In this document: piece by piece, positions 8,099 to 23,824 of the stretch
How the letters are laid out: every line of letters begins with the position of its first letter
Numbering within the stretch: the first letter of the stretch is position 1
From: Gemmatimonadales bacterium
GTDB lineage: Bacteria > Gemmatimonadota > Gemmatimonadetes > Gemmatimonadales > GWC2-71-9
Reading direction: 5' to 3'
DNA: 24,850 nt
Assembly (NCBI GenBank): GCA_030597435.1
Contig: JAUVRV010000001.1
Coordinates: 1-24,850, forward strand
Notes under the pieces: generated by a model
What the model saw: the letters and a program-made list of their open reading frames with translations, nothing else
Database searches by the model: none
What the model was told of the DNA's origin: nothing
Program-made: the position numbers and the translations under genes

Positions 8099-8196
8099 CG
8101 CCAGTCGTTTATGGCTTCGCTATAGGCGGCCTTGTCTTTTCCGTATCTTGCGGTGCGAACCCTCCTGACGCGCCGGCACCGATGTGGGATTCTGTG

Positions 8197-8215
8197 AGCT
8201 GATCTAGCTGATCTA
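8197..8215. repeat. 9-bp perfect tandem duplication overlapping the LysR stop codon
   Basis: AGCTGATCT AGCTGATCT A; the CTA at 8213-8215 is the minus-strand TAG. Confidence 0.7.
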
Positions 8216-9112
8216 TACGAACAGGTGAGCGCGCGCGGCGTGACAGATTGCTACCACCGCCGGATGTTGGACCTTCCGTTCCACCGAAATCGCGTACCAG
8301 CGTTCCACGATCTCAGCCGGCTCACCGAGCTTGCGAACCTTGTATTGCTGTCGAGCGTCTTCGGCCACTATTGAAGGGACTGCGAAGACGCCCGCACCAG
8401 CTTGGCCAAACACCTTGAGGAGCGCACTGTCCTCAAACTCCCCCACCACGACGGGCCGAATACCCACGCTGTCGAACCAGTACTCCAGTGAATGACGCAA
8501 TGTGGTCCCCTCCGCCGGCAACAGAAAGGGAGCGCCGTCGAGCGAGCGCGGAAAACCCTTACGAAAGGCCGTAACGAGAGGGGGGGCGGCCATGAATGTC
8601 ACACCGCACTCGCCGAGCAGGTGATTGAATGCGCGAACACTGAGGTTCGGAGGGACCGGTGCGTCTGACAAGACGACGTCGAGTTCATGGACCGCAAGCC
8701 TCGCCAACAGGTTCTCGCTCGTGTTCTCGACACACAAGATGCGCAAGTCTTCGCCCCCCCGGAGCGCAGGTTCGATCAGCCGGTAGGCCACGAGCTTCGG
8801 CAACACGTCGGCCACGCCAACGAGTAGTGTGAGCGAACGACCTGCCGGTCGTCCTTGCAACGTGTCGGTCAACTCTCGCCCCAGCATGAAGATCTCGTGT
8901 GCGTAGCGGTACACCAGGTGACCCACCTCAGTGAGGACCAACTGCCTTCCCGTCCGGTCGAACAACTCCTCGCCGAGTGCCTCTTCGAGTGTGCGAAGTT
9001 GGGTGCTGCCGGTTTGGGGCGTCAGATGGAGCTTCCTGCTCCCCTCCGTGAGGCTGCCTTCTTGGGCCACAGTCCAGAAGTAGAGCAGGTGGTGATAGTT
9101 GAGCCAATCCAT
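8213..9112 (-). CDS. nhaR: LysR-family transcriptional regulator, NhaR-like
   Basis: The N-terminus MDWLNYHHLLYFWTVAQEGS and motifs VGVADVLPK, LAVHELDVVLSD, EFEDSALLKVFGQ.G.G and YAISVERKVQHPAV are characteristic of NhaR. The start is placed at ATG 9112 rather than the TTG at 9154. No nhaA is in the window, so the function is not proven. Confidence 0.88.
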   Translation of the reverse strand: MDWLNYHHLLYFWTVAQEGSLTEGSRKLHLTPQTGSTQLRTLEEALGEELFDRTGRQLVLTEVGHLVYRYAHEIFMLGRELTDTLQGRPAGRSLTLLVGVADVLPKLVAYRLIEPALRGGEDLRILCVENTSENLLARLAVHELDVVLSDAPVPPNLSVRAFNHLLGECGVTFMAAPPLVTAFRKGFPRSLDGAPFLLPAEGTTLRHSLEYWFDSVGIRPVVVGEFEDSALLKVFGQAGAGVFAVPSIVAEDARQQYKVRKLGEPAEIVERWYAISVERKVQHPAVVAICHAARAHLFV

Positions 9113-9134
9113 TGTGACACCGCCGTTCCAAAGA

Positions 9135-9200
9135 TTCGAATATCCCGAAGCCAATATCGTATAAATTCGATTTGTCCGAAAGTGGATCGAGGATTAGAGT
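9135..9200 (+). promoter_or_regulatory. Two LysR-type dyad boxes plus a sigma70 promoter for the HPF gene
   Basis: TTCG-N7-CGAA at 9135-9149 and at 9166-9180, 31 bp apart. TTGTCC (9172-9177)-N17-TAGAGT (9195-9200). The second box overlaps the -35. Confidence 0.75.
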
Positions 9201-9240
9201 ACAGGACACAGGGTACTCACTGGTGTGTATAGAGGGTCCT

Positions 9241-9585
9241 ATGCGGATTGAAGTTTCGGCTAGGGGAGTCAGGGTAACGCGCCGGCTACGGGAATATGTC
9301 GCTCATCGCTTGCACTTTAAGCTTGGTAGGTTCTCGGACCGGATCAACCTTGTGAAAGTCAGAATAGTAGACGTAAACGGCCCGCGTGGTGGGATCGACC
9401 TACAGTGCCGGATCCAGGTGCGGGGTACTGACGTCGATGGTTTGGTGGCGTCGGCCCTGGCGGCGAACCCTACATCAGCGATCGACGAGGCTGCGGACCG
9501 TATCCACCGCGTGGTTGGTCGCGAATTTGCCCGGGCGTTGGAACTGCGTCGCGGACGGAGACCCCGTTACTCGGGGCTACCCTGA
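9241..9585 (+). CDS. Short HPF/RaiA (S30AE/sigma54-modulation) family ribosome-associated protein
   Basis: MRIEVSARG....LREYV..RL.F.LGRFSDRI..V.V.I.DVNGPRGG.D..CRI.V pattern and a C-terminal AIDEAADRI helix. The ATG at 9241 follows AGAGGG. Confidence 0.8.
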   Translation: MRIEVSARGVRVTRRLREYVAHRLHFKLGRFSDRINLVKVRIVDVNGPRGGIDLQCRIQVRGTDVDGLVASALAANPTSAIDEAADRIHRVVGREFARALELRRGRRPRYSGLP

Positions 9586-9715
9586 AACCGCGGCCACGGT
9601 GGCCGGAACGGTAGTGGACCCCGTTCTTCTACTCCGTTGAGGAACGCGTGCCCTATCAGGTCGACATGAGTGAGCTGAAGTGATGATTGGCTGACTTTGC
9701 AGGAGGGGTGAAGCA

Positions 9716-10081
9716 ATGAACGTCACCAGAAGATCCATGACTGCGCCGGATGGTGACCTGACCACGGCAAGAATCGACAAGATTCGTGAAGAGCTGCATG
9801 GCGAATTGGCTCGGCTGAAGCGCAGTTTGGCGGAGGTTTGGCCGCGCGAGGTCCTTGCGGCACGCGAGGGCCGATACGCGTGCGTGAACCACACACACAC
9901 CGAGTTACTTGCCTCTGACCTTTACGACAGGCTGCAAGAGCGCCGCGCAGAGATCCTCGGCGCACTGGATCGCATCCAACAGGGATCCTACGGCCGCTGT
10001 GCGATATGTGGAGAACCCATACCCTACGAGCGACTGGAGGTAATGCCCGAAACGTACACCTGCATAAGATGCTGTGGTTGA
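9716..10081 (+). CDS. TraR/DksA C4-type zinc-finger protein
   Basis: A coiled-coil N-terminus is followed by ALDRIQQGSYGRCAICGEPIPYERLEVMPETYTCIRC. GGAGG lies upstream of the ATG. Confidence 0.85.
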   Translation: MNVTRRSMTAPDGDLTTARIDKIREELHGELARLKRSLAEVWPREVLAAREGRYACVNHTHTELLASDLYDRLQERRAEILGALDRIQQGSYGRCAICGEPIPYERLEVMPETYTCIRCCG

Positions 10082-10619
10082 GAACTTCGGCGACCAGGAG
10101 TGTTCGGTAGCTCACGGATAGTGTTCGTGTTGCTGTTCCTGCAGGACGGGATACCTGCCGGAGTACCAAGCCTGATCAACGCAGCCTCACGGCGGACAGC
10201 GATCCGCCGCTTGGCCGGCCAGTAGGGCATTGCCGATCCTAGACCTTAATAGCATATTCTCATGTGATTAGCATGAATTGCTCGTCGATGCCCACGTGTG
10301 GGGGGATCCGACGATGCACCGCCCCCAGGTAGGCTCCTTCGGTTTCTACTGGGATGCCGAGCGGTGAGTTCTGTTCCGGGGAGCGCCCGCCCCCCCGGGA
10401 CGTGAAGGCAAGACCTCTGCAAGAATCGCCAGATATCTGGCGCGACGGTGCCGTTGCGATCGGTCAAGTGGCACTCGATATACCTCACAAGAGCCCGACG
10501 TGCGCCATTCTTCGGGCAGGCATCAACCGCGTGAGTTCGCGAGAACTTCCGTTGCCGGGCGTGTCGAAGGGGCTATGGCAGTACCCACTCTTTGGAGTGA
10601 TCCATAACGGAGTGATTCC

Positions 10620-11477
10620 ATGAGACAGTCGTGTAGCGACGTGATTCTTGTCACTGCCGTGTTCGTTCTCGGTAGTGTGTCAGGGCTCGCCGCCCAGGAT
10701 CAGACAGAGCGGGTGGCCGGCTCGGGTCAAGAGCTGTTCCAGACCAGGTGTGCAGTATGCCACACGATCGGCGGTGGTCGCCTCGTGGGGCCCGACCTTG
10801 AGGGGGTCGACGAGCGCCGCAGCGAGGAATGGATCATCGCGTTCGTGCAGCACTCCCAGCAAATGGTCGCGGCGGGCGATCCCGACGCAGTGGCGATCTT
10901 CGAGCAGTACAGCCAAATCATGATGCCCGACCAGGCGCTCTACGACGAGGAGATTCGGGGGATCATCGAGTACATACGGACGGCTGAGCCCACTGCTCCG
11001 GTGCAGCCGGTCGCTTTGGGAGAACCCACAGAGGAACAGATCCTCCTGGGGCAGCAACTCTTCCAGGGGCGCGCACGGTTCGCCAATGGCGGGCCAACCT
11101 GCAACTCATGCCACGAGGTCACGCACGAAGCAGTCCTCGGCGGTGGGTTGCTAGCTCGGGATCTCACCGCCGTGCACTCACGCTTGGGTGCACCGGGAGT
11201 CAAGGCCATCCTGGGAAGTCCACCATTCCCCTTAATGCAGCGGGCTTACCAGGACAAACCGTTGACCGACGAGGAAGTCATAGCTCTGGCCGGTTTTCTA
11301 CAACAGGCCGACGCGGAGCAGGCACTCCACCAACCACGGGACTACGGCCGCAACTTGCTGTTTGCCGGAGTCGTAGGAACGGTGATCCTCCTGGGCCTCT
11401 ACGCGTCGTTCTGGAGCGGGCGTCTGAAAGGCTCAGTGAACCAGTCGATCTACGACCGGCAGGTCAAGTCCACCTGA
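10620..11477 (+). CDS. Membrane-anchored dihaem cytochrome c (NarC-like)
   Basis: Sec-type signal peptide (..SGLAA|QD), CAVCH (residue 44) and CNSCH (residue 161) haem motifs with downstream Met candidates (MMP, PLM), and a C-terminal TM helix. It is the first gene of the nar operon. Confidence 0.85.
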   Translation: MRQSCSDVILVTAVFVLGSVSGLAAQDQTERVAGSGQELFQTRCAVCHTIGGGRLVGPDLEGVDERRSEEWIIAFVQHSQQMVAAGDPDAVAIFEQYSQIMMPDQALYDEEIRGIIEYIRTAEPTAPVQPVALGEPTEEQILLGQQLFQGRARFANGGPTCNSCHEVTHEAVLGGGLLARDLTAVHSRLGAPGVKAILGSPPFPLMQRAYQDKPLTDEEVIALAGFLQQADAEQALHQPRDYGRNLLFAGVVGTVILLGLYASFWSGRLKGSVNQSIYDRQVKST

Positions 11478-11498
11478 AATCACGACCACAAGGAGCGG

Positions 11499-14400
11499 GT
11501 GACGAAAATGGGTTGGATCAAAGACATCATCTCGCCGCAGACCAGGAAGTGGGAGGAGTTCTACCGCAACCGCTTCCAGCATGATCGCGTCGTACGAAGC
11601 ACGCATGGCGCGAACTGCACGGGAGGTTGTTCCTGGCAGATCCATGTCAAGGACGGGATCGTGACTTGGGAGACTCAGCAGCTCGACTACCCGTTGCTGG
11701 AAGACTCTCTGCCTCCCTATGAGCCACGCGGTTGCCAGCGGGGGATCTCCTACTCGTGGTACCTGTACAGCCCTTTGCGAATCAAGTACCCGCTGATCCG
11801 CAGCGCCCTACTCGACGCCTACCGAGCGAAGAAGCAGGAAACGGGCGACTCCATGCAGGCATGGAAGGCTCTGCAAGCCGACGAGGGCGCGCGCAGGAAA
11901 TACCAACAAGCGCGCGGCAAGGGCGGATTCCGACGGGCGAGCTGGGACGAGGTCCTGGAAATCATGTCCGTTGCCAACATCCACACCGCCCAAGAGTATG
12001 GCCCCGACAGGGTCATAGGGTTCAGTCCCATTCCGGCGATGTCGATGATGAGCTACGCAGCGGGAGGACGTTTCCTCCAGCTGTTTGGAGGAGTCAACCT
12101 CAGCTTCTACGACTGGTACTGCGATCTTCCCACCGCATTTCCCGAAATCTGGGGCGAGCAGACCGATGTGTGCGAGAGCGCTGACTGGTACAACGCCAAG
12201 ATGATCGCGGACATGGGTGCGTGTCTCAACATGACGCGCACGCCTGACTGCCACTTCTTTGCCGAGTCACGTCACAACGGGACGAAGGCAGTCGTCTTCT
12301 CTCCGGATTTCAGCCAGGTCTGCAAGTACGCCGACCAATGGGTACCACTCCACGCGGGAAGCGACGGTGCGTTCTGGATGGCGACGACGCACGTGATTCT
12401 CAAGGAGTTCCACCACGAGAAGCAGACACCCTACTTCATCGACTACGTCAAGCAATACACAGACAGCCCGTACCTCGTGAAGCTTGAGCGGGACGGCGAG
12501 CATTACAAGCCGGGACGGTTGTTGCGGGCGTCGGAGATCCCCGAGTACAAGGACGTGTCGAACGGGGAGTGGAAATTCGTCAACATCGATACCACAACCG
12601 GCAAGTTCGTGGTTCCCAAGGGGAGTTCCGGATCCCGCTGGGACGAGCAGCAAGGCAACTGGAACATGAAGCCCGAGAACGCTGTGGACGACCAGTCCTA
12701 CGATCCGGTGCTCACGCTACTCGGAAGATCCGACGATGTCGTGCAGACGAGCTTCATCGAGTTCGGACTCGACAACACGGTGCACCGCGGTGTACCGGTG
12801 ATGCACGTCGAGACGACCGAGGGTCAAGTGACGGTGACAACGGTATACGATCTCATCATGGCCCAATACGGCGTCGACCGTGGTTTGCCCGGTGACTACC
12901 CGACAGACTATAACGACAAGAACGCGGCCTACACACCGACGTGGCAGGAGCTGTTCACCGGCGTGTCGGCAGACACCGTGCTCCAGTTTGCTCGTGAGTG
13001 GGCGAGTACGGCCGAGGCCACCGGCGGAAAGTGCATGATCATCATCGGGGCGGGGATCAACCATTGGTATCACTCCAACTTGATGTACCGGGCCGGAGCG
13101 ATGGCCCTGATGCTCACCGGTTGTGTGGGCAAGAACGGTGGCGGCCTCAACCACTATGTGGGGCAGGAGAAGTTGGCACCGATGGACTCCTGGGGGACAA
13201 TTGCTTTTGGCAAGGACTGGCAATCCGCGATCCGGCTCCAGCAGGCGCCGCTGTGGCACTACATCAACACGTGCCAGTATCGCTACGACGGTCAGTTCTC
13301 GAGATACAACACGGTTCCCGATAACGAGCTGACGCGGCAACACACCGCCGACCAGATCTACAAAGCCGTTCGCATGGGCTGGATGCCCTTCTACCCACAG
13401 TTCGACCAGAACACGCTCGACCTCAGCAGAGAGGCCGTCGACAATGGAGCCACTGATGACGAGGGCATCCGGCAGTACGTCCTGAACAAGCTCAAGAACA
13501 AGGAGTTGCAGTACTCGGTGAGCGACCCGGAGGCCGAACACAACTTCCCTCGCGTGTGGTACATCTGGCGTGGCAACGCAATCATGGGAAGCATGAAGGG
13601 ACACGAGTACTGCCTGAAGCACTACTTGGGCACGCACTCGAACGCGATAGCCGAGGACTCTGAGGACCATACCCGCGAAGTGAAGTGGCACGATGTCGCA
13701 CCAGTTGGGAAGATGGACCTCATCGTCGACCTGAATTTCCGAATGGACTCGTCGGCTCTGTACTCCGACATCGTGCTGCCTGCGGCCTCGTGGTACGAGA
13801 AAGCCGACTTGAACAGCACGGACCTCCACTCGTTCATCCACCCACTCTCGGCGGCCATCGCACCGGTGTGGGAGTCGAAGACCGACTGGGACATTTTCCG
13901 CGAACTTGCCAAGGCGACTAGCGAGGCGGCGGCCAAGTACTTCCCCGAGCCACAGAAAGACGTCGTTGCCTCTCCCATCGCGCACGACACTGCCGGAGAG
14001 ATCGCTCAACCGGTCATCAAGGACTGGTACCACGGAGAGTGTGAGGCCGTGCCCGGCAAGACCACGCACAACCTGGCGGTGGTGGACCGCGACTACACGA
14101 AGATCTATGACAAGTTCATCAGCCTGGGCGATCGCATCCGGACTGCCGGTCTGGGAGCCCACGGAAACCATTACCAGTGCGAAGACGCGTACGACGAGAT
14201 GGTCGCGTCCAACCACTTCCCGGTGGAGCGCCACAATGGCAAAGTCTTGCCGTCATTGAAGGAAGGTGAGTGGGCGGCCAACGCGGTGCTGCACCTCTCG
14301 ACGTTGACCAACGGCAAGCTCAACGTGCGCGCCTACCGCAATGCCGAGCAGCGAACGGGTGTGGATCTAGTCGACCTGGGTGCTGGCAGCGAAGATGTAC

Positions 14401-15122
14401 TGATTCACTACGCGGACCTGCAGGCACAGCCACGGCGCTACAACACGTCGCCGCTGTGGTCGGGCGTCATGAACGGTGGGAGGGCCTATGCTGCCTATAC
14501 CTACAACGTGGAGAAGCTGATTCCCTGGCGCACGCTGACGGGTCGCCAGCACTTCTACCTCGACCATGAAATGTATCTCGCCTACGGTGAGAACCTCCCC
14601 ACCTACAAGCCGTCTCCCAAACCAGAAGCCTACGGCGATCTCAAGCAGACTCTGAAAGATGGCGATGCTCGGATCTTGAACTGCCTCACCCCGCACGGGA
14701 AGTGGCACATCCACTCCACTTATATGGAGAACCACCGGATGCTGACCCTCTCCAGGGGCTGCGAGCCTGGCTGGATGAGCGAGGTGGACGCGGCAGAGTT
14801 GGGCATCCAGGACAATGATTGGGTCGAGGTCTATAACGACCACGGAGTTTACTGTGCACGCGCCAGCGTCAGCGCCCGAATCCCCAAGGGTGTGTGCATC
14901 GTGTACCACGTACCGGAGCGCACGGTTGGAATCCCCAAGTCACAGGTGCGCGGCGGCAAGCGGGCCGGGGGTCACAACAGTTTCACGCGCATCCACCTCA
15001 AGCCGAACTTCCTCGCCGGGGGTTACGGGCAGTTCAGTTACCACTTCAACTACTGGGGACCGATTGCACCAAACCGGGATACCCATGTCGTTGTCAAGCG
15101 AATGGACAAGGTAGTGTTTTGA
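11499..15122 (+). CDS. narG: Respiratory nitrate reductase alpha subunit (start 11499 GTG or 11508 ATG)
   Basis: FS0 motif [14 protein letters not shown]...EPRGC, the Mo-ligand Asp in [44 protein letters not shown] and [12 protein letters not shown]. No twin-arginine signal. Confidence 0.97.
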
Positions 15123-15158
15123 TGACTTACGGATCGCGTCAAGAACGGGAGAACTGAG

Positions 15159-16712
<1,554 letters not shown>

Positions 16713-16714
16713 AC

Positions 16715-17428
16715 ATGGACTTGCATCACTATCAAGAGCTTGCCCCTCTCTTCGAGTACCCGGAGCAAGACTACCCGGCACGGGTCAAAGCGGTCTGTGA
16801 GCTTCTGGAGAGCCGCTATCCGCTGGCGGCAGTGGAATTGAACGCGTTCGCAAAAGCGCTGCCGTCTCGGAACTTGGTCTTCTCAGCGCCGGCGCTGGAC
16901 GAAATGCAGGAGATCTTCACGCGGTCGTTCGATGTCCAATCAATCACGACCCTCAGCGTGGGCTACGTCGTGTTTGGGGATGACTACAAGCGGGGTGAGC
17001 TGCTGGTCAACCTGAACCGCGAGCACCGCGAGGCAGGGGTCGATTGTGGCAGTGAACTGTCAGACCATCTGCCCAACGTTCTGCGCCTGATTGCCCGGTG
17101 GCGTGACGAAGAGATGGTGGTCGAATTCGTCGAGGAGATCCTGCATCCGGCCCTCGACAGGATAATTGGTGAGTTCGATACAGCACGCATGGAACAGCGC
17201 AACAGGCTGTACCAGAAACACTTCAAGACCTTGATCGCCTCTTCCGCCGAGCGCGGCACGATCTTTCGCATGCCGTTGGCGGCTCTCTTGGCGGTGCTCA
17301 CTGAGGATTTCGGTCTCTCTGAACGAAAACGCCAGGAGCAAGAGAGCGATTTCCTACGTTCCATCGGCCGCGAACTGGACATCGAAACCAGTGAGGGGCG
17401 TCCGGCTCAGTCGAGGAGTCTGCCATGA
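16715..17428 (+). CDS. narJ: Nitrate reductase molybdenum cofactor assembly chaperone (delta)
   Basis: LFEYP, FTRSFD and ELSDHLPNVLRL (the E-x-x-D-H-L motif of the NarJ/TorD family). It sits between narH and narI. ATG 16715 is preferred over TTG 16709. Confidence 0.9.
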   Translation: MDLHHYQELAPLFEYPEQDYPARVKAVCELLESRYPLAAVELNAFAKALPSRNLVFSAPALDEMQEIFTRSFDVQSITTLSVGYVVFGDDYKRGELLVNLNREHREAGVDCGSELSDHLPNVLRLIARWRDEEMVVEFVEEILHPALDRIIGEFDTARMEQRNRLYQKHFKTLIASSAERGTIFRMPLAALLAVLTEDFGLSERKRQEQESDFLRSIGRELDIETSEGRPAQSRSLP

Positions 17429-18153
17429 ACGCGCTCAACACCTTCCTCTTTGTCGCCTTTCCCTATGTGGCGGTCATTGTCTTCGTGGTCGGTGTCATCT
17501 ACCGGTACAGGCAGAAAGGCTTCACGGTCTCGTCGCTCTCGTCGCAGTTCCTCGAGGGAAGACAGCTCTTCTGGGGTACCGTCCCGTTTCATATCGGGTT
17601 GCTGGTGGTGTTCTGCGGGCACTTCATCGCGTTTGTGCTGCCACAGGCCAATCTCACCTGGAACACGATACCCATTCGCTTGCTGATTCTCGAGGTGACC
17701 GCACTAGTGTTCGGCCTCACCGTGCTCGTCGGCCTCGTATCCCTCATGTACCGACGGCTAACCAACGCACGCATCCGCGCGGTAACTACCAAGATGGACA
17801 TAGCCGTCGAACTGCTTCTGCTCGCCCAGGTAGTGCTGGGATGCTGGATCGCCCTGGGCTTCCGTTGGGGAGCATCATGGTTCCCGGCCAGTCTCTCACC
17901 GTACCTGTGGTCGCTGGTCAAGCTGACCCCGGAGACCGGTGCGGTCTTCGCCCTTCCGTGGGTCATCAAGCTCCACATTGTCGGCGCATTTTCGATCGTC
18001 TTCATGGTTCCGTTCACGCGCCTGGTGCACTTCGTCGTAGCACCGCTCAACTACCTGGTACGGCCGTATCAGCAGGTCATGTGGAACTGGGACCGTACGG
18101 CTATCCGGGACCCGAGCGCTCCGTGGAGCAAGGCACGGCCGAAAAACAACTGA
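17425..18153 (+). CDS. narI: Respiratory nitrate reductase gamma subunit (dihaem cytochrome b)
   Basis: Five TM segments and SSQFLE. The haem-b His pairs FHIG....GH and LHI...PFTRLVH are spaced as in NarI. ATGA overlap with narJ. Confidence 0.96.
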   Translation: MNALNTFLFVAFPYVAVIVFVVGVIYRYRQKGFTVSSLSSQFLEGRQLFWGTVPFHIGLLVVFCGHFIAFVLPQANLTWNTIPIRLLILEVTALVFGLTVLVGLVSLMYRRLTNARIRAVTTKMDIAVELLLLAQVVLGCWIALGFRWGASWFPASLSPYLWSLVKLTPETGAVFALPWVIKLHIVGAFSIVFMVPFTRLVHFVVAPLNYLVRPYQQVMWNWDRTAIRDPSAPWSKARPKNN

Positions 18154-18196
18154 GCTTTGAGCCGGCCAAGCGGAACAGCGGCCAAGGAGAATACCG

Positions 18197-19834
18197 ATGA
18201 CGGGTGAGCACCAGAAAAAGACCTGGCCCAGCTACTGGAATCCCGAAGACGAGACGTTCTGGAACCGTGAAGGCAAACGAGTAGCCAAGCGGAATCTCTG
18301 GGTCTCCATCCCCAACCTATTGCTGGCCTTCGCCGTCTGGATCTATTGGGGTATGGTCGCCACGTACATCCAGAGGCTCCACTTTGCCTCCGGGGGAGAA
18401 CTCTTCAACTTCACCTTCATGCATGGCGGGGAGGCGTACGACGACCCCGGATATAGAGCGCTCCTTTTCATGCTTCCCGCTGTAGCGGGTTTGGCGGGAG
18501 CGACCTTGCGGATCCCCAACTCGTTCATGATCGCGATCTGTGGGGGGCGGAACGTGAAGTTCATGACGAGCCTGCTTCTCATCCTGCCAGCTATCGGTAC
18601 GGGGATCGCCCTCCAGGACCATACGACGCCGTTCTATCTCTTCATCATACTTGCAGCGCTGTCGGGTGTCGGGGGAGGAGCGTTCGCTTCGTCCATGTCA
18701 AACATCAGCTTCTTTTTTCCGAAGAAGGAGCAGGGGCTGGCGTTGGGACTGAACGCGGGATTGGGAAACCTGGGCGTCAGCGTGATGCAGTTCCTGATCC
18801 CCTGGGTTATCACCTTTCGTTTGTTCGGCCCCCTGAGTGGAGACCCGTACGTGTATTCAGCGGATGGGGCGACCTCGGACATTTGGATCCAAAACGCGGG
18901 CCTGGTCTGGGTGCCGATTCTGCTCTTGTTCGTGATCCTGGCCTTCTTGTACATGAACAATCTGCCCTTCCACAGGATCGGCTCCACGCCCGTCGCGGTC
19001 GCGAAGTATCTGTGGCTCACTCTGCTGGGCCTGATCGGTACAGCCGCTGGGGTCATCCTGTTGATCGTACCATGGGGCGGATTTCCAGACCTATTGAAGA
19101 CCTTCATCATCGTGGTAGTGGCGGTAGTCGTCACGCTCGCAGCTATGCGATTCCTGACGCCTAAGGAGACCAAAGAAAGCCTCAACCAACAGTTCGGAAT
19201 CTTCAGGTTGAAGCACAACTGGATCATGACGTACCTCTATGTCATGACCTTCGGCTCCTTCATTGGATACGCCAACGCCTTTCCGAAGCTGATCGACGAC
19301 GTCTTTGGCGTCATCAGGGTGGGAGAGCAGGCAGGTCAGGCGACGGGTCTGAGTTCAGCTGGGTTCATCTGGATCGGCGCCGGCGTTGGCGCGTTGATAA
19401 GGCCTCTGGGAGGGTGGCTGTCAGATAAAATGGGAGGTGCACGGGTAACCCACTGGGACACCATCCTCATGATCGCGTCAACCATCGGGGCGGGGTACGT
19501 AGTCTCCCTCGCCATGGGTTCGCCGGATCCCACACAATATTTCGTCGTCTTTCTGCTTCTGTTCGTAGTGCTTTTCGCGACAACGGGCATCGGAAACGGC
19601 TCAACCTTCCGGATGATCGGCGTGATCTTCTCGAAAGACCTCCGCGGGCCCGTGCTTGGCTGGACCTCAGCAATCGCAGCATATGGAGCGTACCTCATTC
19701 CCAAGATCTTCGCGGGCCAGATCCAAGCAGGTACGCCGCAGTACGCGCTGTATGGTTTTGCCGGCTACTACGCGACATGCCTGGCCCTCAACTGGTGGTT
19801 CTACGCAAGGAAGCATGCGGAGATCGACTGCTAG
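18197..19834 (+). CDS. narK: Nitrate/nitrite MFS transporter, NarK2-type (antiporter clade)
   Basis: W.PEDETFW...GKRVAKRNLWVS, the two conserved Arg (ATLRIP, ALIRPLGGWLSD), GIGNGSTFRMI and GWTSAIAAYGA. AAGGAG upstream. Confidence 0.92.
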   Translation: MTGEHQKKTWPSYWNPEDETFWNREGKRVAKRNLWVSIPNLLLAFAVWIYWGMVATYIQRLHFASGGELFNFTFMHGGEAYDDPGYRALLFMLPAVAGLAGATLRIPNSFMIAICGGRNVKFMTSLLLILPAIGTGIALQDHTTPFYLFIILAALSGVGGGAFASSMSNISFFFPKKEQGLALGLNAGLGNLGVSVMQFLIPWVITFRLFGPLSGDPYVYSADGATSDIWIQNAGLVWVPILLLFVILAFLYMNNLPFHRIGSTPVAVAKYLWLTLLGLIGTAAGVILLIVPWGGFPDLLKTFIIVVVAVVVTLAAMRFLTPKETKESLNQQFGIFRLKHNWIMTYLYVMTFGSFIGYANAFPKLIDDVFGVIRVGEQAGQATGLSSAGFIWIGAGVGALIRPLGGWLSDKMGGARVTHWDTILMIASTIGAGYVVSLAMGSPDPTQYFVVFLLLFVVLFATTGIGNGSTFRMIGVIFSKDLRGPVLGWTSAIAAYGAYLIPKIFAGQIQAGTPQYALYGFAGYYATCLALNWWFYARKHAEIDC

Positions 19835-19912
19835 TGCGGGTGACCGAGTCATCTCAACGTACCGGGCCCGCACTCTGACCGGTCGCAACTAAACGAGAGC
19901 CAAGACGAGGTT

Positions 19913-21406
19913 ATGCAAGAACAATCAGTAGCTTGGCGGGTTCTAGCCCTCAACACGATTGCCTTCACCGTCTGTTTCGCATGCTGGATGCTGAACGGGG
20001 TGCTCGTGACCTTCCTGGTCGAGGCCGGGCTATTCGAGTGGGACGCCGCCCAGATGGGTACACTGATCGGCATCCCGGTTCTCACCGGCTCACTCATGAG
20101 ATTGCCCCTCGGCATGCTCACTGATAAGTTTGGCGGTCGCCCCGTGTACGCCATACTGATGCTCCTGTGCGCGGTGCCGATGTTCCTCCTGAGTCGCGTC
20201 GACTCCTACACCGGGTACCTTCTCGCAAGCTTGGGCTTCGGCCTGACAGGCACTTCGTTTGCTGTGGGCATCGCGTTCTCCTCGGTTTGGTTCAGGAGAG
20301 AGCACCAGGGAACCGCTCTGGGGATTTTCGGGGCGGGAAACGCCGGTGCGGCTTTGACGGCCATGCTCGCACCGGGCGTTCTACGCGCGCTCACGCATGG
20401 TGGAGAAGACCTGGAGCGCTGGCGACTCCTGCCTCAGTACTACGCCGCGCTACTTGTCGCGATGGCTGTCGTTTTCTTCGTGTTTACCAAGAACAAGAAG
20501 CCCGAAGTTGCCTCACGATCTACCGTGCTGCAGATGCTCCAGCCGCTGAGGAACGTGCGCGTCTGGCGGTTTGGCTTGTACTATTTTCTGGTGTTCGGCG
20601 GATTCGTTGCTCTGTCTCAGTGGCTGGTGCCGTACTACGTCAACGTCTACGCAATGACCATCGTTACTGCGGGACTGCTGACCTCCATTTTCTCGCTTCC
20701 GTCCGGCGTCATCCGCGCGTTGGGTGGGTATCTCTCAGATAAGCTCGGTGCTCGTAGCGTGATGTACTGGGTTCTGAGCGTTGTAGCTCTCTGCTGCTTC
20801 GCACTGTTCTTTCCCAAGATGGAGGTCGAATCCCCGGGTAGCGGGGTCATGGCGAGGAAGAGCGGCACCGTAACACTCGTAGCGGACGGCGAGATCCGAG
20901 TCGACGACGACATCTACCCACTGCAGTCGAGGTCGCAAGACGAGTTCGATGACGCCGGAACCCACTTGCTGCCAGTCATCCGCTCATGGCACGTGCCGCA
21001 AGTGGAAGTCGGTCAGCAAGTCGGCAGGCGACACCTCCTGGCAGGCGGTGTCACACACGTTTTCTTTCAGGCAAACGTCTGGATCTTCACTATATTTGTC
21101 TTCATCATCGGTATCGCGATGGGGATCGGGAAAGCAGCAGTCTACAAGTACATTCCCGAGTACTTCCCATCCCAAGTCGGTGTCGTGGGAGGTATGGTCG
21201 GCGTCATAGGTGGCCTCGGAGGGTTCGTTTGCCCGATCATCTTTGGGTACCTGCTGCGGGGCATCGGACTCTGGACGACCACCTGGGTATTCTTCTTCTT
21301 AGTGGCAATGGTATGCCTCATCTGGCTCCATCTGGTGGTGCGGCGGAGTTCCACGAAGGAGACCCATATCGAAGGTCCAGGGCCGCACGCAGCTAGCACC
21401 GGGTAG
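19913..21406 (+). CDS. narK: Nitrate/nitrite MFS transporter, NarK1-type, with an extra soluble insertion
   Basis: VL.LNTIAFTVCFACW, GIPVLTGSLMRLPLG.LTD.FGGR, GTALGIFGAGNAG, GVIRALGGYLSD, GIGKAAVYKYIP.YFP and GG..G.IGGLGGF. Confidence 0.92.
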   Translation: MQEQSVAWRVLALNTIAFTVCFACWMLNGVLVTFLVEAGLFEWDAAQMGTLIGIPVLTGSLMRLPLGMLTDKFGGRPVYAILMLLCAVPMFLLSRVDSYTGYLLASLGFGLTGTSFAVGIAFSSVWFRREHQGTALGIFGAGNAGAALTAMLAPGVLRALTHGGEDLERWRLLPQYYAALLVAMAVVFFVFTKNKKPEVASRSTVLQMLQPLRNVRVWRFGLYYFLVFGGFVALSQWLVPYYVNVYAMTIVTAGLLTSIFSLPSGVIRALGGYLSDKLGARSVMYWVLSVVALCCFALFFPKMEVESPGSGVMARKSGTVTLVADGEIRVDDDIYPLQSRSQDEFDDAGTHLLPVIRSWHVPQVEVGQQVGRRHLLAGGVTHVFFQANVWIFTIFVFIIGIAMGIGKAAVYKYIPEYFPSQVGVVGGMVGVIGGLGGFVCPIIFGYLLRGIGLWTTTWVFFFLVAMVCLIWLHLVVRRSSTKETHIEGPGPHAASTG

Positions 21407-21520
21407 CCGTGCCCCAGTCTTGTTCCATCACCAAGAAGCTGACATGGACGAGCCCCGCCAACCTGGGATCCGCATAGAGGACGCGACCGACTGCTGCGAT
21501 AGCCACAGGAGGCTCGCATC

Positions 21521-21976
21521 ATGAGTGTTGCAACACACATCCTGCTCACTACCGATTTTTCGGAGGCGTCCGAAGAAGCAGTTGCCAAGGCTGGTGAGCT
21601 GGCACGGGACGCTGGTGTCAAGCTGACCGTGCTACACGTCCACAGCCACCCGCCAAGCGCTCCAGAAGCATACGTTCCAGCGGACAAGGTGCTTACGTCC
21701 GCCGAACTCGATACCGAAGCGCACCAGGCTCTTGAAGAGCTGAAGAATTCCCAGCTCGCCAATGTCGAGTCCGTTACCCTCGTCGCCGTAGAGCATGTCA
21801 GTGCTCCACTCGCGATCTGCGATTACGCAGACAAACACGGAGTCGACCTCATTGTCATCGGTACTCACGGACGCACCGGCCTAACCCGTCTCCTAATCGG
21901 CAGCGTCGCCGAAAAAGTCGTGCGCCACGCGAACTGCGCCGTACTGGTGGTCCCCCACAGTAAGCATCGGCGGTAG
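21521..21976 (+). CDS. Universal stress protein (UspA family)
   Basis: HILLTTDFSEAS and DLIVIGTHGRTGLTRLLIGSVAEKVVRHA (G-2x-G-9x-GS nucleotide-binding motif). AGGAGG lies 8 nt upstream. Confidence 0.95.
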   Translation: MSVATHILLTTDFSEASEEAVAKAGELARDAGVKLTVLHVHSHPPSAPEAYVPADKVLTSAELDTEAHQALEELKNSQLANVESVTLVAVEHVSAPLAICDYADKHGVDLIVIGTHGRTGLTRLLIGSVAEKVVRHANCAVLVVPHSKHRR

Positions 21977-23824
21977 TGTGGTGTGATGGCCACTGAGAAC
22001 TTTCTGGGCTTCCAGGACCGCCCGGGGCAGGATTACGATCTCCCTCAAGGACATGGCGGTGACTTCGCCGGACGGATCCGTGCTGAAGGTGATACGCTTG
22101 GGTTGCCGCTCATCTGTCTCCCATACTTCCGGCGTACCGGTCGCCGCCAGTGAAGCCACCCTGCCGCCGGGGTATCTCAGCGTAAGAGTCCCGTCTTCCC
22201 AGGTGAGGGTCAGAACCCCCTGGCCGCCGGGTAGCTGGTAGTCGCCCAGAATGGATTGTAGGGAATCGGGGGCGGGGGAGTCCATACCCGGTGAAGAACG
22301 CTGCTTCGGGAAGACCGAGGTCTGGGCCAGCCGCATGGCCTCCACCTCTCCGGAAGCGCCTTGCCGGAAGGAGACCGCGACGAGGTCGGTGAGGGTGAAG
22401 CTTCTCCACCCCTTTTCATCGGGCTCGTTGAGGGTGAAGACCATCTGGCCGGGGATATCCACGGCTAAAGCGTTTCCCTGGACCAGGACGGTGAACTCTG
22501 TCCCCTGGTGGGGACCGAAGTTGGCACTGTAGCGCCCCACATAGGGCCGGAAGGCCTCGGGGATGGGAGCCGCGTGGGTTCCTCCGTGGGCGTCCGGTGC
22601 CATGAACAGGTCATACAGCAATCTTTCCAACTCCATGTGCACGTCCTGGCCCCTGGACTGCGTGAAGCAGAGGACCATGAGATCCTCCCCGGGCCAGGCC
22701 CAGGCGAAGGTGCCATCGGATCCGGCGTATCCAATGACCTGGTTGCTCCCCTCCCCGCTTCCGTCGGTGTCCCGGAAGAGGAGGGCCATCTGGCCATGCC
22801 AGACTTCCAGGCCAGGGAAGGCCGTGGGGTAGGGTGCGGTAGACCCGATCTGGGTCATGGGAGACACCGGGTTGAGGGTCCGCCGGACCGATTCCTCGGC
22901 CAGGAGCCTAGTGCCCAGGTAGCTGCCGCCGTCGAGCCAGAGGGTAAGGAAGCGAGCGTAGTCCAGTGGAGTGGCGTACACGCTCTGGGATCCCAGGGGG
23001 AAGGCGTAGAAGGGGTCCTCCGACGGCTCCCAGAACCGCTGCCAGGCCCTGGTCGTGCCCCCGCCCCCGTAGAGGGCCGCGATACGGTCCGTGGGAAGGT
23101 CGCTTCCGGAGGCCTGGGTGAGGAAACCGGTATCCCTCATCCCCACGGGTCCGAAGAGCCGGGACTCCAGAAAGAGGTCCAAAGGCTGGCCCGATACGGC
23201 TTCGACTAGGGCGCCCAGGACATCGGCGCCGGCGTCGCTGTACCAGAACCGGGTGCCTGGTTCGAAGATCGGGCCCGCAGTACCAATGGCAGTGGTCAGC
23301 TCCCCGAGGGTCTGGCTTGGATGTTCCGGGTCCAACGCCAGGCTGACCGGAAGCCCGCTACGGTGTGTCAGAAGCTGCTCCACCGTGATCATCCCCGCGT
23401 CTCCGTCTCGCAAGGCCGGGAGGAACTTGGCTACCCGGCCGTCGAGGGTGAGGGCGCCTTCCTGAATGAGGATCTGGACGGCCGTGCCCACCAGGGGCTT
23501 GGTCATGGAGCGAATGTTGAAGATAGTGTTGACCCCCATCTCCTCTCCCCGCTCCCGATTCTTCCAGCCGAACGCCCTGTTCATCACCGTCCGGCGATTC
23601 TTGATGACCAGAAGCTCTGCCCCAACGACCCGGTCCTCCTCCACCCACCCCTGGATTCGGTGGTGAAGTGACTCAAGGGCTTCCGGGGCGATTCCCTGGC
23701 TCTCCGGAGACGCCGGTGGGAAGGGTGGCTCCTGGGCAGCGAGCGACCCGGCCCAGAAGAGAACTGGAAGAGCGAGAAAGGGCGGGAAGCAGAGCAACTG
23801 TCTGATTGCGCGATTGGCGTTCAT
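21893..23824 (-). CDS. Secreted serine hydrolase, beta-lactamase class C/PBP fold, with two C-terminal DUF3471-like modules
   Basis: Signal peptide (..SLAA|QE), F.IRSMTKP (SxxK), LLTHRSG, F.PGTRFWYSD (YxN variant) and G..MRDTGF. The last 84 nt overlap the usp gene antisense. Confidence 0.85.
   Translation of the reverse strand: MNANRAIRQLLCFPPFLALPVLFWAGSLAAQEPPFPPASPESQGIAPEALESLHHRIQGWVEEDRVVGAELLVIKNRRTVMNRAFGWKNRERGEEMGVNTIFNIRSMTKPLVGTAVQILIQEGALTLDGRVAKFLPALRDGDAGMITVEQLLTHRSGLPVSLALDPEHPSQTLGELTTAIGTAGPIFEPGTRFWYSDAGADVLGALVEAVSGQPLDLFLESRLFGPVGMRDTGFLTQASGSDLPTDRIAALYGGGGTTRAWQRFWEPSEDPFYAFPLGSQSVYATPLDYARFLTLWLDGGSYLGTRLLAEESVRRTLNPVSPMTQIGSTAPYPTAFPGLEVWHGQMALLFRDTDGSGEGSNQVIGYAGSDGTFAWAWPGEDLMVLCFTQSRGQDVHMELERLLYDLFMAPDAHGGTHAAPIPEAFRPYVGRYSANFGPHQGTEFTVLVQGNALAVDIPGQMVFTLNEPDEKGWRSFTLTDLVAVSFRQGASGEVEAMRLAQTSVFPKQRSSPGMDSPAPDSLQSILGDYQLPGGQGVLTLTWEDGTLTLRYPGGRVASLAATGTPEVWETDERQPKRITFSTDPSGEVTAMSLREIVILPRAVLEAQKVLSGHHTTLPPMLTVGDHQYGAVRVAHDFFGDAAD

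Follow-up and report, generated by a model that had tools for sequence, protein, structure and literature searches.

The stretch of DNA analysed here, 24,850 nucleotides from a Gemmatimonadales bacterium and below called the window, raises the question what a cytochrome c gene is doing directly in front of the genes for a membrane-bound nitrate reductase. Textbook enzymes of this kind (Nar) consist of three subunits, and in Escherichia coli (nitrate reductase A, narK-narGHJI) and Paracoccus it is a transporter gene, and not a cytochrome c gene, that is located directly upstream of narG. An original prediction, made from the letters alone, had recognised, 21 nt before narG, the gene for a cytochrome c that has two CxxCH motifs between a signal peptide and a C-terminal anchor, with narHJI and two narK genes after narG, and had read the whole as a Thermus-like, narC-led operon. 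All of these elements were recovered at the proposed positions: seven genes, all on the forward strand, span 10620-21406 in the order narC-narG-narH-narJ-narI-narK-narK. The window is the entire contig C395 of a metagenome-assembled genome (MAG) of 2.85 Mb that comprises 419 contigs and is 63% complete. As set out below, we regard it as probable that this region is an operon for a Thermus-type membrane-bound nitrate reductase, in which NarC would be the probable fourth subunit and would provide a periplasmic haem-c outlet.

The first gene (narC; 10620-11477) encodes a protein of 285 amino acids with matches to PF00034 and PF13442 and the layout of a membrane-anchored periplasmic dihaem cytochrome c. 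Its N-terminus is a hydrophobic, signal-like segment that is predicted to comprise residues 1-25 and to end in GLA-AQ. The two haem motifs are CAVCH (residues 44-48, nt 10749-10763) and CNSCH (residues 161-165, nt 11100-11114), for which Met102 and Met206 are the predicted axial ligands. The C-terminal anchor is apparent from the hydrophobic residues ~246-265 and, in an AlphaFold2 model with a mean pLDDT (predicted local distance difference test score) of 80, from a helix formed by residues 242-269 (nt ~11343-11426).

When this protein was compared by tblastn with 72,556 plasmids, 27 records were matched, and the only matches spanning both haem domains (residues 36-233) came from 14 Thermus megaplasmids (34% identity, E ~1e-16). 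In pTHTHE1601 and pTTJL1801 the matching gene encodes a 262-aa c-type cytochrome directly before narG, i.e. NarC. Pairwise BLASTP of the window protein and Thermus NarC gave an E value of 1e-24 with 34% identity across both haem domains and, in the reverse search, Thermus NarC matched only 10725-11318 in the whole MAG (E 4e-15). The reciprocal comparison that had been suggested for this cytochrome thus returned the best match in both directions. Thermus NarC is built in the same way, with a signal peptide, two class I domains that each carry a CxxCH motif, and an anchor at the C-terminus. Its alignment with the window protein extends over the full length and takes in the anchor, where W265 and R268 are conserved. 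Among 32 NarC homologues both CxxCH motifs, M102/P103, M206, a GG-x2-L-x3-LT signature and R268 of the anchor were invariant, and W265 was nearly so; locus L080, which has a stop codon in its row, was left out of this alignment. Relatives in the database were abundant (more than 1000 at E <= 1e-10), the best 120 of them were at least 57% identical, and the few named ones among these were from Gemmatimonadota. Judged by these sequence-level tests, namely a best match both ways, the haem motifs, the anchor and the position, the product of 10620-11477 is a true NarC homologue.

One part of the protein has no counterpart in Thermus NarC. The cytoplasmic tail SVNQxIYDRQVKS (residues ~270-285, nt 11427-11474) is highly conserved in close relatives (at least 58% identical) and is also absent from distant homologues. 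Through this tail NarC may touch NarG, NarH or NarI at the cytoplasmic face of the membrane.

The second domain of NarC, together with the anchor, produced a profile match to QcrC (NF050122, E 8e-8, below the family cut-off), and when PDB structures were searched for folds like that of the NarC model, weak QcrC matches (8hcr_C, 7e1v_O and 6hwh_M, E ~1e-7) were returned as well as matches to single class I cytochrome c domains. A solved Nar complex bearing NarC was not found in this PDB search. QcrC, the dihaem cytochrome cc subunit of the actinobacterial bcc complex III, likewise consists of two class I domains and a C-terminal helix, but its similarity to NarC is weak, and its partners are the Rieske protein and cytochrome b in a qcr context, whereas NarC is found with NarI in a nar context. 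The QcrC-like second domain and anchor are in agreement with a role of NarC resembling that of the c subunit of complex III. The N-terminal domain displayed an ordinary class I cytochrome c fold, near Rhodothermus cytochrome c and SCO-fused domains. Such an ordinary fold could be expected if NarC were a membrane cytochrome c of general use, perhaps one that donates electrons to oxidases or NosZ, and adjoined narG without being a subunit of Nar, and the same holds for a paralogous monohaem gene that adjoins nosZ elsewhere in the MAG. The evidence that speaks against this explanation comes from the linkage of narC and narG across bacteria.

To define this linkage, loci were collected in a NarC-based scan with one genome per species, which yielded 80 homologous loci from more than ten phyla. 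The taxa covered included Gemmatimonadota, Thermoanaerobaculia, Myxococcota, Gamma-, Alpha- and Betaproteobacteria, Eremiobacterota, Chloroflexota, Nitrospirota and Thermodesulfobacteriota, among others. Directly downstream of narC, narG was present in 76 of the 80 loci, usually together with narH and narJ, and the position of narJ was conserved across related loci. The synteny survey thereby bore out the proposed association of the two genes. The narC-narG spacer had a median length of 23 nt in the 76 loci; overlaps were common, often in the more distant group. Three of the four loci without a downstream narG stop at a contig edge. In the fourth, L058, a NarC fragment is located at a contig end, the 6 kb downstream hold no narG and the next genes are on the opposite strand; this locus was treated as an assembly edge or a relic. 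The nearest locus was from another Gemmatimonadota MAG (NarC 88% and NarG 95% identical) and most close relatives were likewise Gemmatimonadota MAGs from several independent studies, as expected from the Gemmatimonadota origin that had been proposed for the window.

A second sample was picked by NarG and not by NarC. It comprised 201 genomes of the phylum, 13 of which have narG (12 besides the present MAG). In every one of the nine testable cases, in which NarG identity was 58% or higher, a full-length narC immediately precedes narG. One of the 12 narG genes was cut at a contig start, and the other two were divergent NarG-like genes (45-46% identity) without narC, one of them with a monohaem cytochrome c instead. 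The latter gene (G119:C5:39817-43940, L108) is 45% identical to the window NarG, lies in a 1467-aa open frame and has the monohaem cytochrome c gene upstream. It groups with the other divergent gene (G166) and belongs to neither the NarC clade nor that of E. coli.

Among the 77 loci whose sequence extends beyond narC, 76 showed the linkage with narG, as did all nine testable genes from the NarG-picked sample, which indicates that selection keeps the two genes together. Linkage of this extent over more than ten phyla, with spacers of ~23 nt or overlaps, and its recurrence in the sample chosen by NarG, leave very little credence for a general-purpose cytochrome that merely adjoins narG, and the two-hybrid and mutant data for Thermus also show a subunit role (PMC7694296). 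Furthermore, the narC-led layout is the rule for narG in Gemmatimonadota and is widespread in other phyla. The original prediction had implied that the arrangement is rare, and on this point it did not hold.

The enzyme that NarC accompanies is a regular member of its family. The catalytic molybdenum bis-molybdopterin guanine dinucleotide subunit NarG (11499-15122) is of the cytoplasm-facing type and reached 1434 bits against TIGR01580 (cut-off 1084). Alignment with the Thermus and E. coli proteins showed that it has a short N-terminus without a twin-arginine translocation signal and that it retains both the FS0 motif H36-x3-C40-x3-C44...C79 and the YDWYCDLP stretch. NarG was 57% identical to the Thermus protein, 45% to that of E. 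coli and 44-47% to the Paracoccus, Burkholderia, Ralstonia and Nocardia enzymes. The iron-sulfur subunit NarH (15159-16712; PF13247, PF14711) reached 649 bits against TIGR01660 (cut-off 524), and its identity was 58% to the Thermus protein and 53% to that of E. coli. The NarG-specific chaperone NarJ (16709-17428) is divergent: it reached 40 bits against TIGR00684, which is below the cut-off, shared 52% identity with its Thermus counterpart over 69 aa, and gave no match to E. coli NarJ. NarI (17425-18153), the dihaem b, quinol-oxidising membrane subunit, reached 211 bits against PF02665 and 128 bits against TIGR00351 (cut-off 106), with 42% identity to Thermus and 33% to E. coli NarI, and the haem-ligand histidines 56, 66, 184 and 202 were all conserved in the alignment. 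Hence NarG, NarH, NarI and NarJ are all nearer to their Thermus than to their E. coli counterparts. That NarG, NarH and NarI score above curated cut-offs and keep their cofactor ligands fits a cytoplasm-facing, membrane-bound NarGHI. The FS0 motif, the Mo site and the haem b ligands are the same in the E. coli and Paracoccus enzymes, which also share the cytoplasmic active site, the NarJ chaperone and NarK-family transport with the system in the window.

To place NarG, a FastTree phylogeny was built from 45 NarG proteins: 40 from NarC-linked loci, the two divergent Gemmatimonadota proteins, and only three NarC-less references (E. coli, Paracoccus and Nocardia). All 40 NarC-linked proteins, with Thermus among them, formed one clade with a support of 100, apart from the three references and the two divergent proteins. 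The window NarG accordingly belongs to the Thermus clade and is separate from the enteric and Paracoccus proteins (45-47% identical), whose genes have no cytochrome c gene upstream. Within the clade it was placed next to the 95%-identical NarG of the nearest Gemmatimonadota MAG, in a tight subclade on a long stem. This subclade mixes Gemmatimonadota, Thermoanaerobaculia, Myxococcota and Gammaproteobacteria, which suggests that the whole nar operon spread laterally.

The same tree bears on the idea that the enzyme runs backwards as a Nitrobacter-type nitrite oxidoreductase (NXR), with NarC carrying electrons from NarI to a terminal oxidase. By description, the Nitrobacter cluster is very similar to the one in the window and includes a periplasmic NarC homologue (PMC7694296). 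Furthermore, the large NarG clade that holds the window protein also includes NarC-linked loci of Xanthobacteraceae and Bradyrhizobium-like MAGs, in which narG and narH are separated by an additional ~650 nt, and the present MAG has one A-type oxidase. In this tree, which was built without an authentic Nitrobacter NxrA, the window NarG however falls on its long stem into a different subclade from the Xanthobacteraceae- and Bradyrhizobium-like loci, and the window has no extra gene between narG and narH. NarG is also well over the TIGR01580 equivalog cut-off for narG, the operon includes two nitrate/nitrite transporter genes and its neighbours are stress and hibernation genes; to our knowledge nitrite oxidation has not been reported in Gemmatimonadota. 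We therefore consider operation as a nitrite oxidoreductase highly improbable, and favour the Thermus-type nitrate reductase.

The extra space between narG and narH was observed, with 500-770 nt, in loci L062, L067, L073, L074, L079-L081, L088, L090, L091 and L093. These represent one NarC-linked subclade with members from Alphaproteobacteria/Xanthobacteraceae and Burkholderiales, and one each from Thermodesulfobacteriota, Ardenticatenaceae (Chloroflexota) and Gemmatimonadaceae. The gap is roomy enough for a small extra gene and is reminiscent of nxrX, the gene between nxrA and nxrB of Nitrobacter.

What NarC would do in this complex can be approached from Thermus. Thermus NarC is a membrane-bound periplasmic dihaem cytochrome that interacts strongly with NarI in two-hybrid assays; in narC mutants NarG is soluble and immature, and a denitrifying strain, in which complex III is repressed, requires NarC to grow on nitrite or NO (PMC7694296). 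The narCGHJIKT operon of the Thermus thermophilus NCE element shows the same narC-first order before narGHJI and genes for transporters of the major facilitator superfamily (MFS) as the window, while strains SG0.5JP17-16 and JL-18 have narCGHJI-narO, with NarO carried by pTHTHE1601 and pTTJL1801. The operon in the window differs in that it comes from a mesophile-like Gemmatimonadota MAG and not from the megaplasmid of a thermophile. By homology, NarC of the window would be exported, would receive two c-type haems with His/Met ligation, and its C-terminal helix would keep it attached to the periplasmic side of the membrane. There it would bind NarI as the fourth structural subunit of a NarCGHI heterotetramer and would be required for the assembly and membrane attachment of active NarGH. 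NarJ would assist the maturation of NarG, NarI would oxidise menaquinol, NarGH would reduce nitrate on the cytoplasmic side, and the two MFS proteins would move nitrate in and nitrite out. In addition, NarC would open a haem-c route from haem bP of NarI into the periplasm so that, when nitrate is scarce, quinol electrons could pass via NarI to periplasmic acceptors and bypass complex III. The NarC-NarI contact, the role in maturation and the direction of electron flow are inferred here from Thermus genetics. A four-subunit enzyme with a periplasmic c-type branch had also been suggested in the original prediction, as a reasonable extension of the Thermus findings.

The periplasmic loop between helices 4 and 5 of NarI carries a motif, YRWG..W....PYLWS, that was common to five NarC-linked operons (the window, L001, L109, L110 and L111) and was not seen in E. 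coli NarI. It may be a docking site for NarC or may reflect shared ancestry only, and we mention it as a lead.

The direction of electron flow could also be the reverse, with NarC acting as an inlet through which periplasmic c-type cytochromes or donors other than quinol, for instance a bc complex or chains that oxidise Fe(II) or sulfur, deliver electrons to haem bP of NarI and on to NarGH. The geometry would be identical to that of the outlet. Judged by redox potentials, the transfer from cytochrome c to nitrate is downhill. A genome-wide family search detected three cytochrome b genes in the MAG that could reduce c-type cytochromes, and Streptomyces Nar1 is reported to depend on the bcc-aa3 supercomplex (PMC7931247). 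Yet NarI is of ordinary size, carries no fused Rieske or cytochrome c domain and keeps all its quinol-side haem ligands, and no bc or alternative complex III genes are linked to the nar operon in the window. The Thermus data, moreover, favour electrons that leave via NarC to Nir and Nor (PMC7694296). An inlet is therefore quite unlikely in our view, and the outlet remains the preferred reading.

Several observations nevertheless weigh against a Thermus-type enzyme with a periplasmic outlet. The identity to Thermus NarC is only ~34%, and the tail after the anchor is unlike the Thermus one. With three cytochrome b genes in the genome, electrons need no detour around complex III to arrive at c-type cytochromes. 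The Thermus genes dnrST, drpAB and nrc are not found in the window, where the neighbours instead encode a LysR-family regulator, a hibernation factor, a DksA-like protein and a universal stress protein. The contact between NarC and NarI and the flow of electrons, as proposed here, rest on analogy with Thermus. Finally, neither NirK, NirS, NorB nor NrfA was found in the 63%-complete MAG, so that few periplasmic acceptors for the electrons are known.

The original prediction had stated that the window contains no nir, nor or nos genes, and a family search of the window genes indeed returned none. It had further proposed a search of the rest of the genome for nir, nor, nos and nrf, which produced a mixed outcome. 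A clade II (Sec-type) nosZ was detected on contig C411 (C411:3290-5872, corresponding to L097:1495-4083 on the reverse strand) with 878 bits against TIGR04246, and directly before it is a gene for a monohaem cytochrome c of 183 aa, which shares 39% identity with the first haem domain of NarC. In contrast, the MAG-wide searches, limited by the 63% completeness, did not identify convincing genes for the other four enzymes. The NirK profile (TIGR02376) matched only the cupredoxin part of NosZ with 19 bits, the NirS profile (PF02239) gave a 23-bit match inside a 967-aa frame that was not accepted as NirS, and the 20 bits for NrfA (PF02335) were not convincing. A search for NorB via COX1 returned a single A-type-like haem-copper oxidase instead. 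Since the MAG is only 63% complete, an absence of nir, nor and nrf cannot be claimed. The differences from Thermus in this respect concern an incomplete genome, in which nir and nor were not found.

Clade II NosZ, which comes with a monohaem cytochrome c of its own, is the one candidate periplasmic acceptor found for electrons from NarC. Gemmatimonadota are known mainly as non-denitrifying N2O reducers. A more far-reaching proposal follows this line, which we put forward tentatively and which is probably not right as a whole: the NarC-type Nar would be an under-recognised class that spans phyla and no peculiarity of Thermus, and NarI-NarC of Gemmatimonadota would work as a quinol:cytochrome c oxidoreductase and supply clade II NosZ with electrons, with contacts made by the SVNQxIYDRQVKS tail and the YRWG...PYLWS loop of NarI. 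If this were true, nitrate respiration would be directly linked to N2O consumption in Gemmatimonadota.

The window itself is a plain instance of a known architecture and introduces no new architecture or mechanism. In the literature that was searched, narCGHJI is discussed only for Thermus. The four-subunit, cytochrome-c-bearing Nar is studied only in this genus, and its breadth across phyla is under-described in print. To the Thermus system the window adds a Gemmatimonadota example, and the survey makes the NarC form the standard Nar of this phylum. The same form is also present in Acidobacteriota, Myxococcota, Chloroflexota, Eremiobacterota, Nitrospirota, Thermodesulfobacteriota and several proteobacterial classes. 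This is of use for the annotation of nitrogen-cycle genes in MAGs and for the choice of a mesophilic model for NarC function.

The operon continues with genes for two MFS proteins of the NarK family. The first (18197-19834) is of the NarK2 or E. coli NarK type, with 266 bits against TIGR00886 and 280 bits against the NarU profile, both below the cut-offs; it was 34% identical to E. coli NarK and 37% to the C-terminal half of the Paracoccus NarK fusion. The second (19913-21406; PF07690) is of the NarK1 type, reached 190 bits against TIGR00886 (below the cut-off) and was 44-47% identical to the N-terminal half of the Paracoccus fusion. By these sequence relationships the first is a probable nitrate/nitrite antiporter and the second a probable nitrate importer. 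Compared with the Paracoccus NarK1 half, the second protein has an insert of ~80 aa (residues ~304-386), at which BLASTP splits the alignment into two segments. Relative to narK-narT, as described in an abstract on Thermus, the order in the window is reversed, with the NarK2-type gene preceding the NarK1-type gene that bears the insert.

The spacing of the genes was examined together with scans for sigma-70 promoters and intrinsic terminators, which covered 8100-22200 and were compared with shuffled sequence. The ATG of narC is preceded by GGAG at a distance of 7 nt, and its TGA stop codon ends at 11477. The forward-strand spacer to narG (11478-11498) is 21 nt long and contains AGGAG. Two starts are conceivable for narG: a GTG at 11499, which corresponds to the 21-nt gap and has AGGAG 5 nt upstream, or an ATG at 11508. 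No promoter-like or terminator-like site was detected by the scans in this spacer, which is too short to hold either. The start of narJ overlaps the stop of narH by 4 nt. Over 8100-22200 the numbers of promoter and terminator sites were no higher than in shuffled sequence, and the transcript ends were not fixed by these scans; a weak terminator-like hairpin was located at 21401-21414. The seven nar genes are probably co-transcribed.

An FNR/Dnr-like box, TTGCGATCGGTCAA, was noticed upstream of narC at 10454-10467. This candidate was rejected as a conserved regulator site because the TTG-N8-CAA pattern was not enriched in the window (6 found versus 3.8 expected) and was present upstream of narC in only one of 39 related loci.

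The genes that flank the operon are of a different kind. Upstream of narC, the interval 8213-10081 contains a gene for a LysR-family regulator on the reverse strand, followed by a gene for a ribosome hibernation factor-like protein (HPF; 9172-9585, PF02482) and a DksA/TraR zinc-finger gene (9716-10081). Downstream, 114 nt past the second narK, a forward-strand gene encodes a universal stress protein (Usp; 21521-21976; PF00582, 122 bits), and this gene may be the last one of the nar unit. Together, the LysR, HPF, DksA-like and Usp genes place the nar operon in a stress and dormancy setting, unlike the dnr and drp regulators that are found with the Thermus operon.

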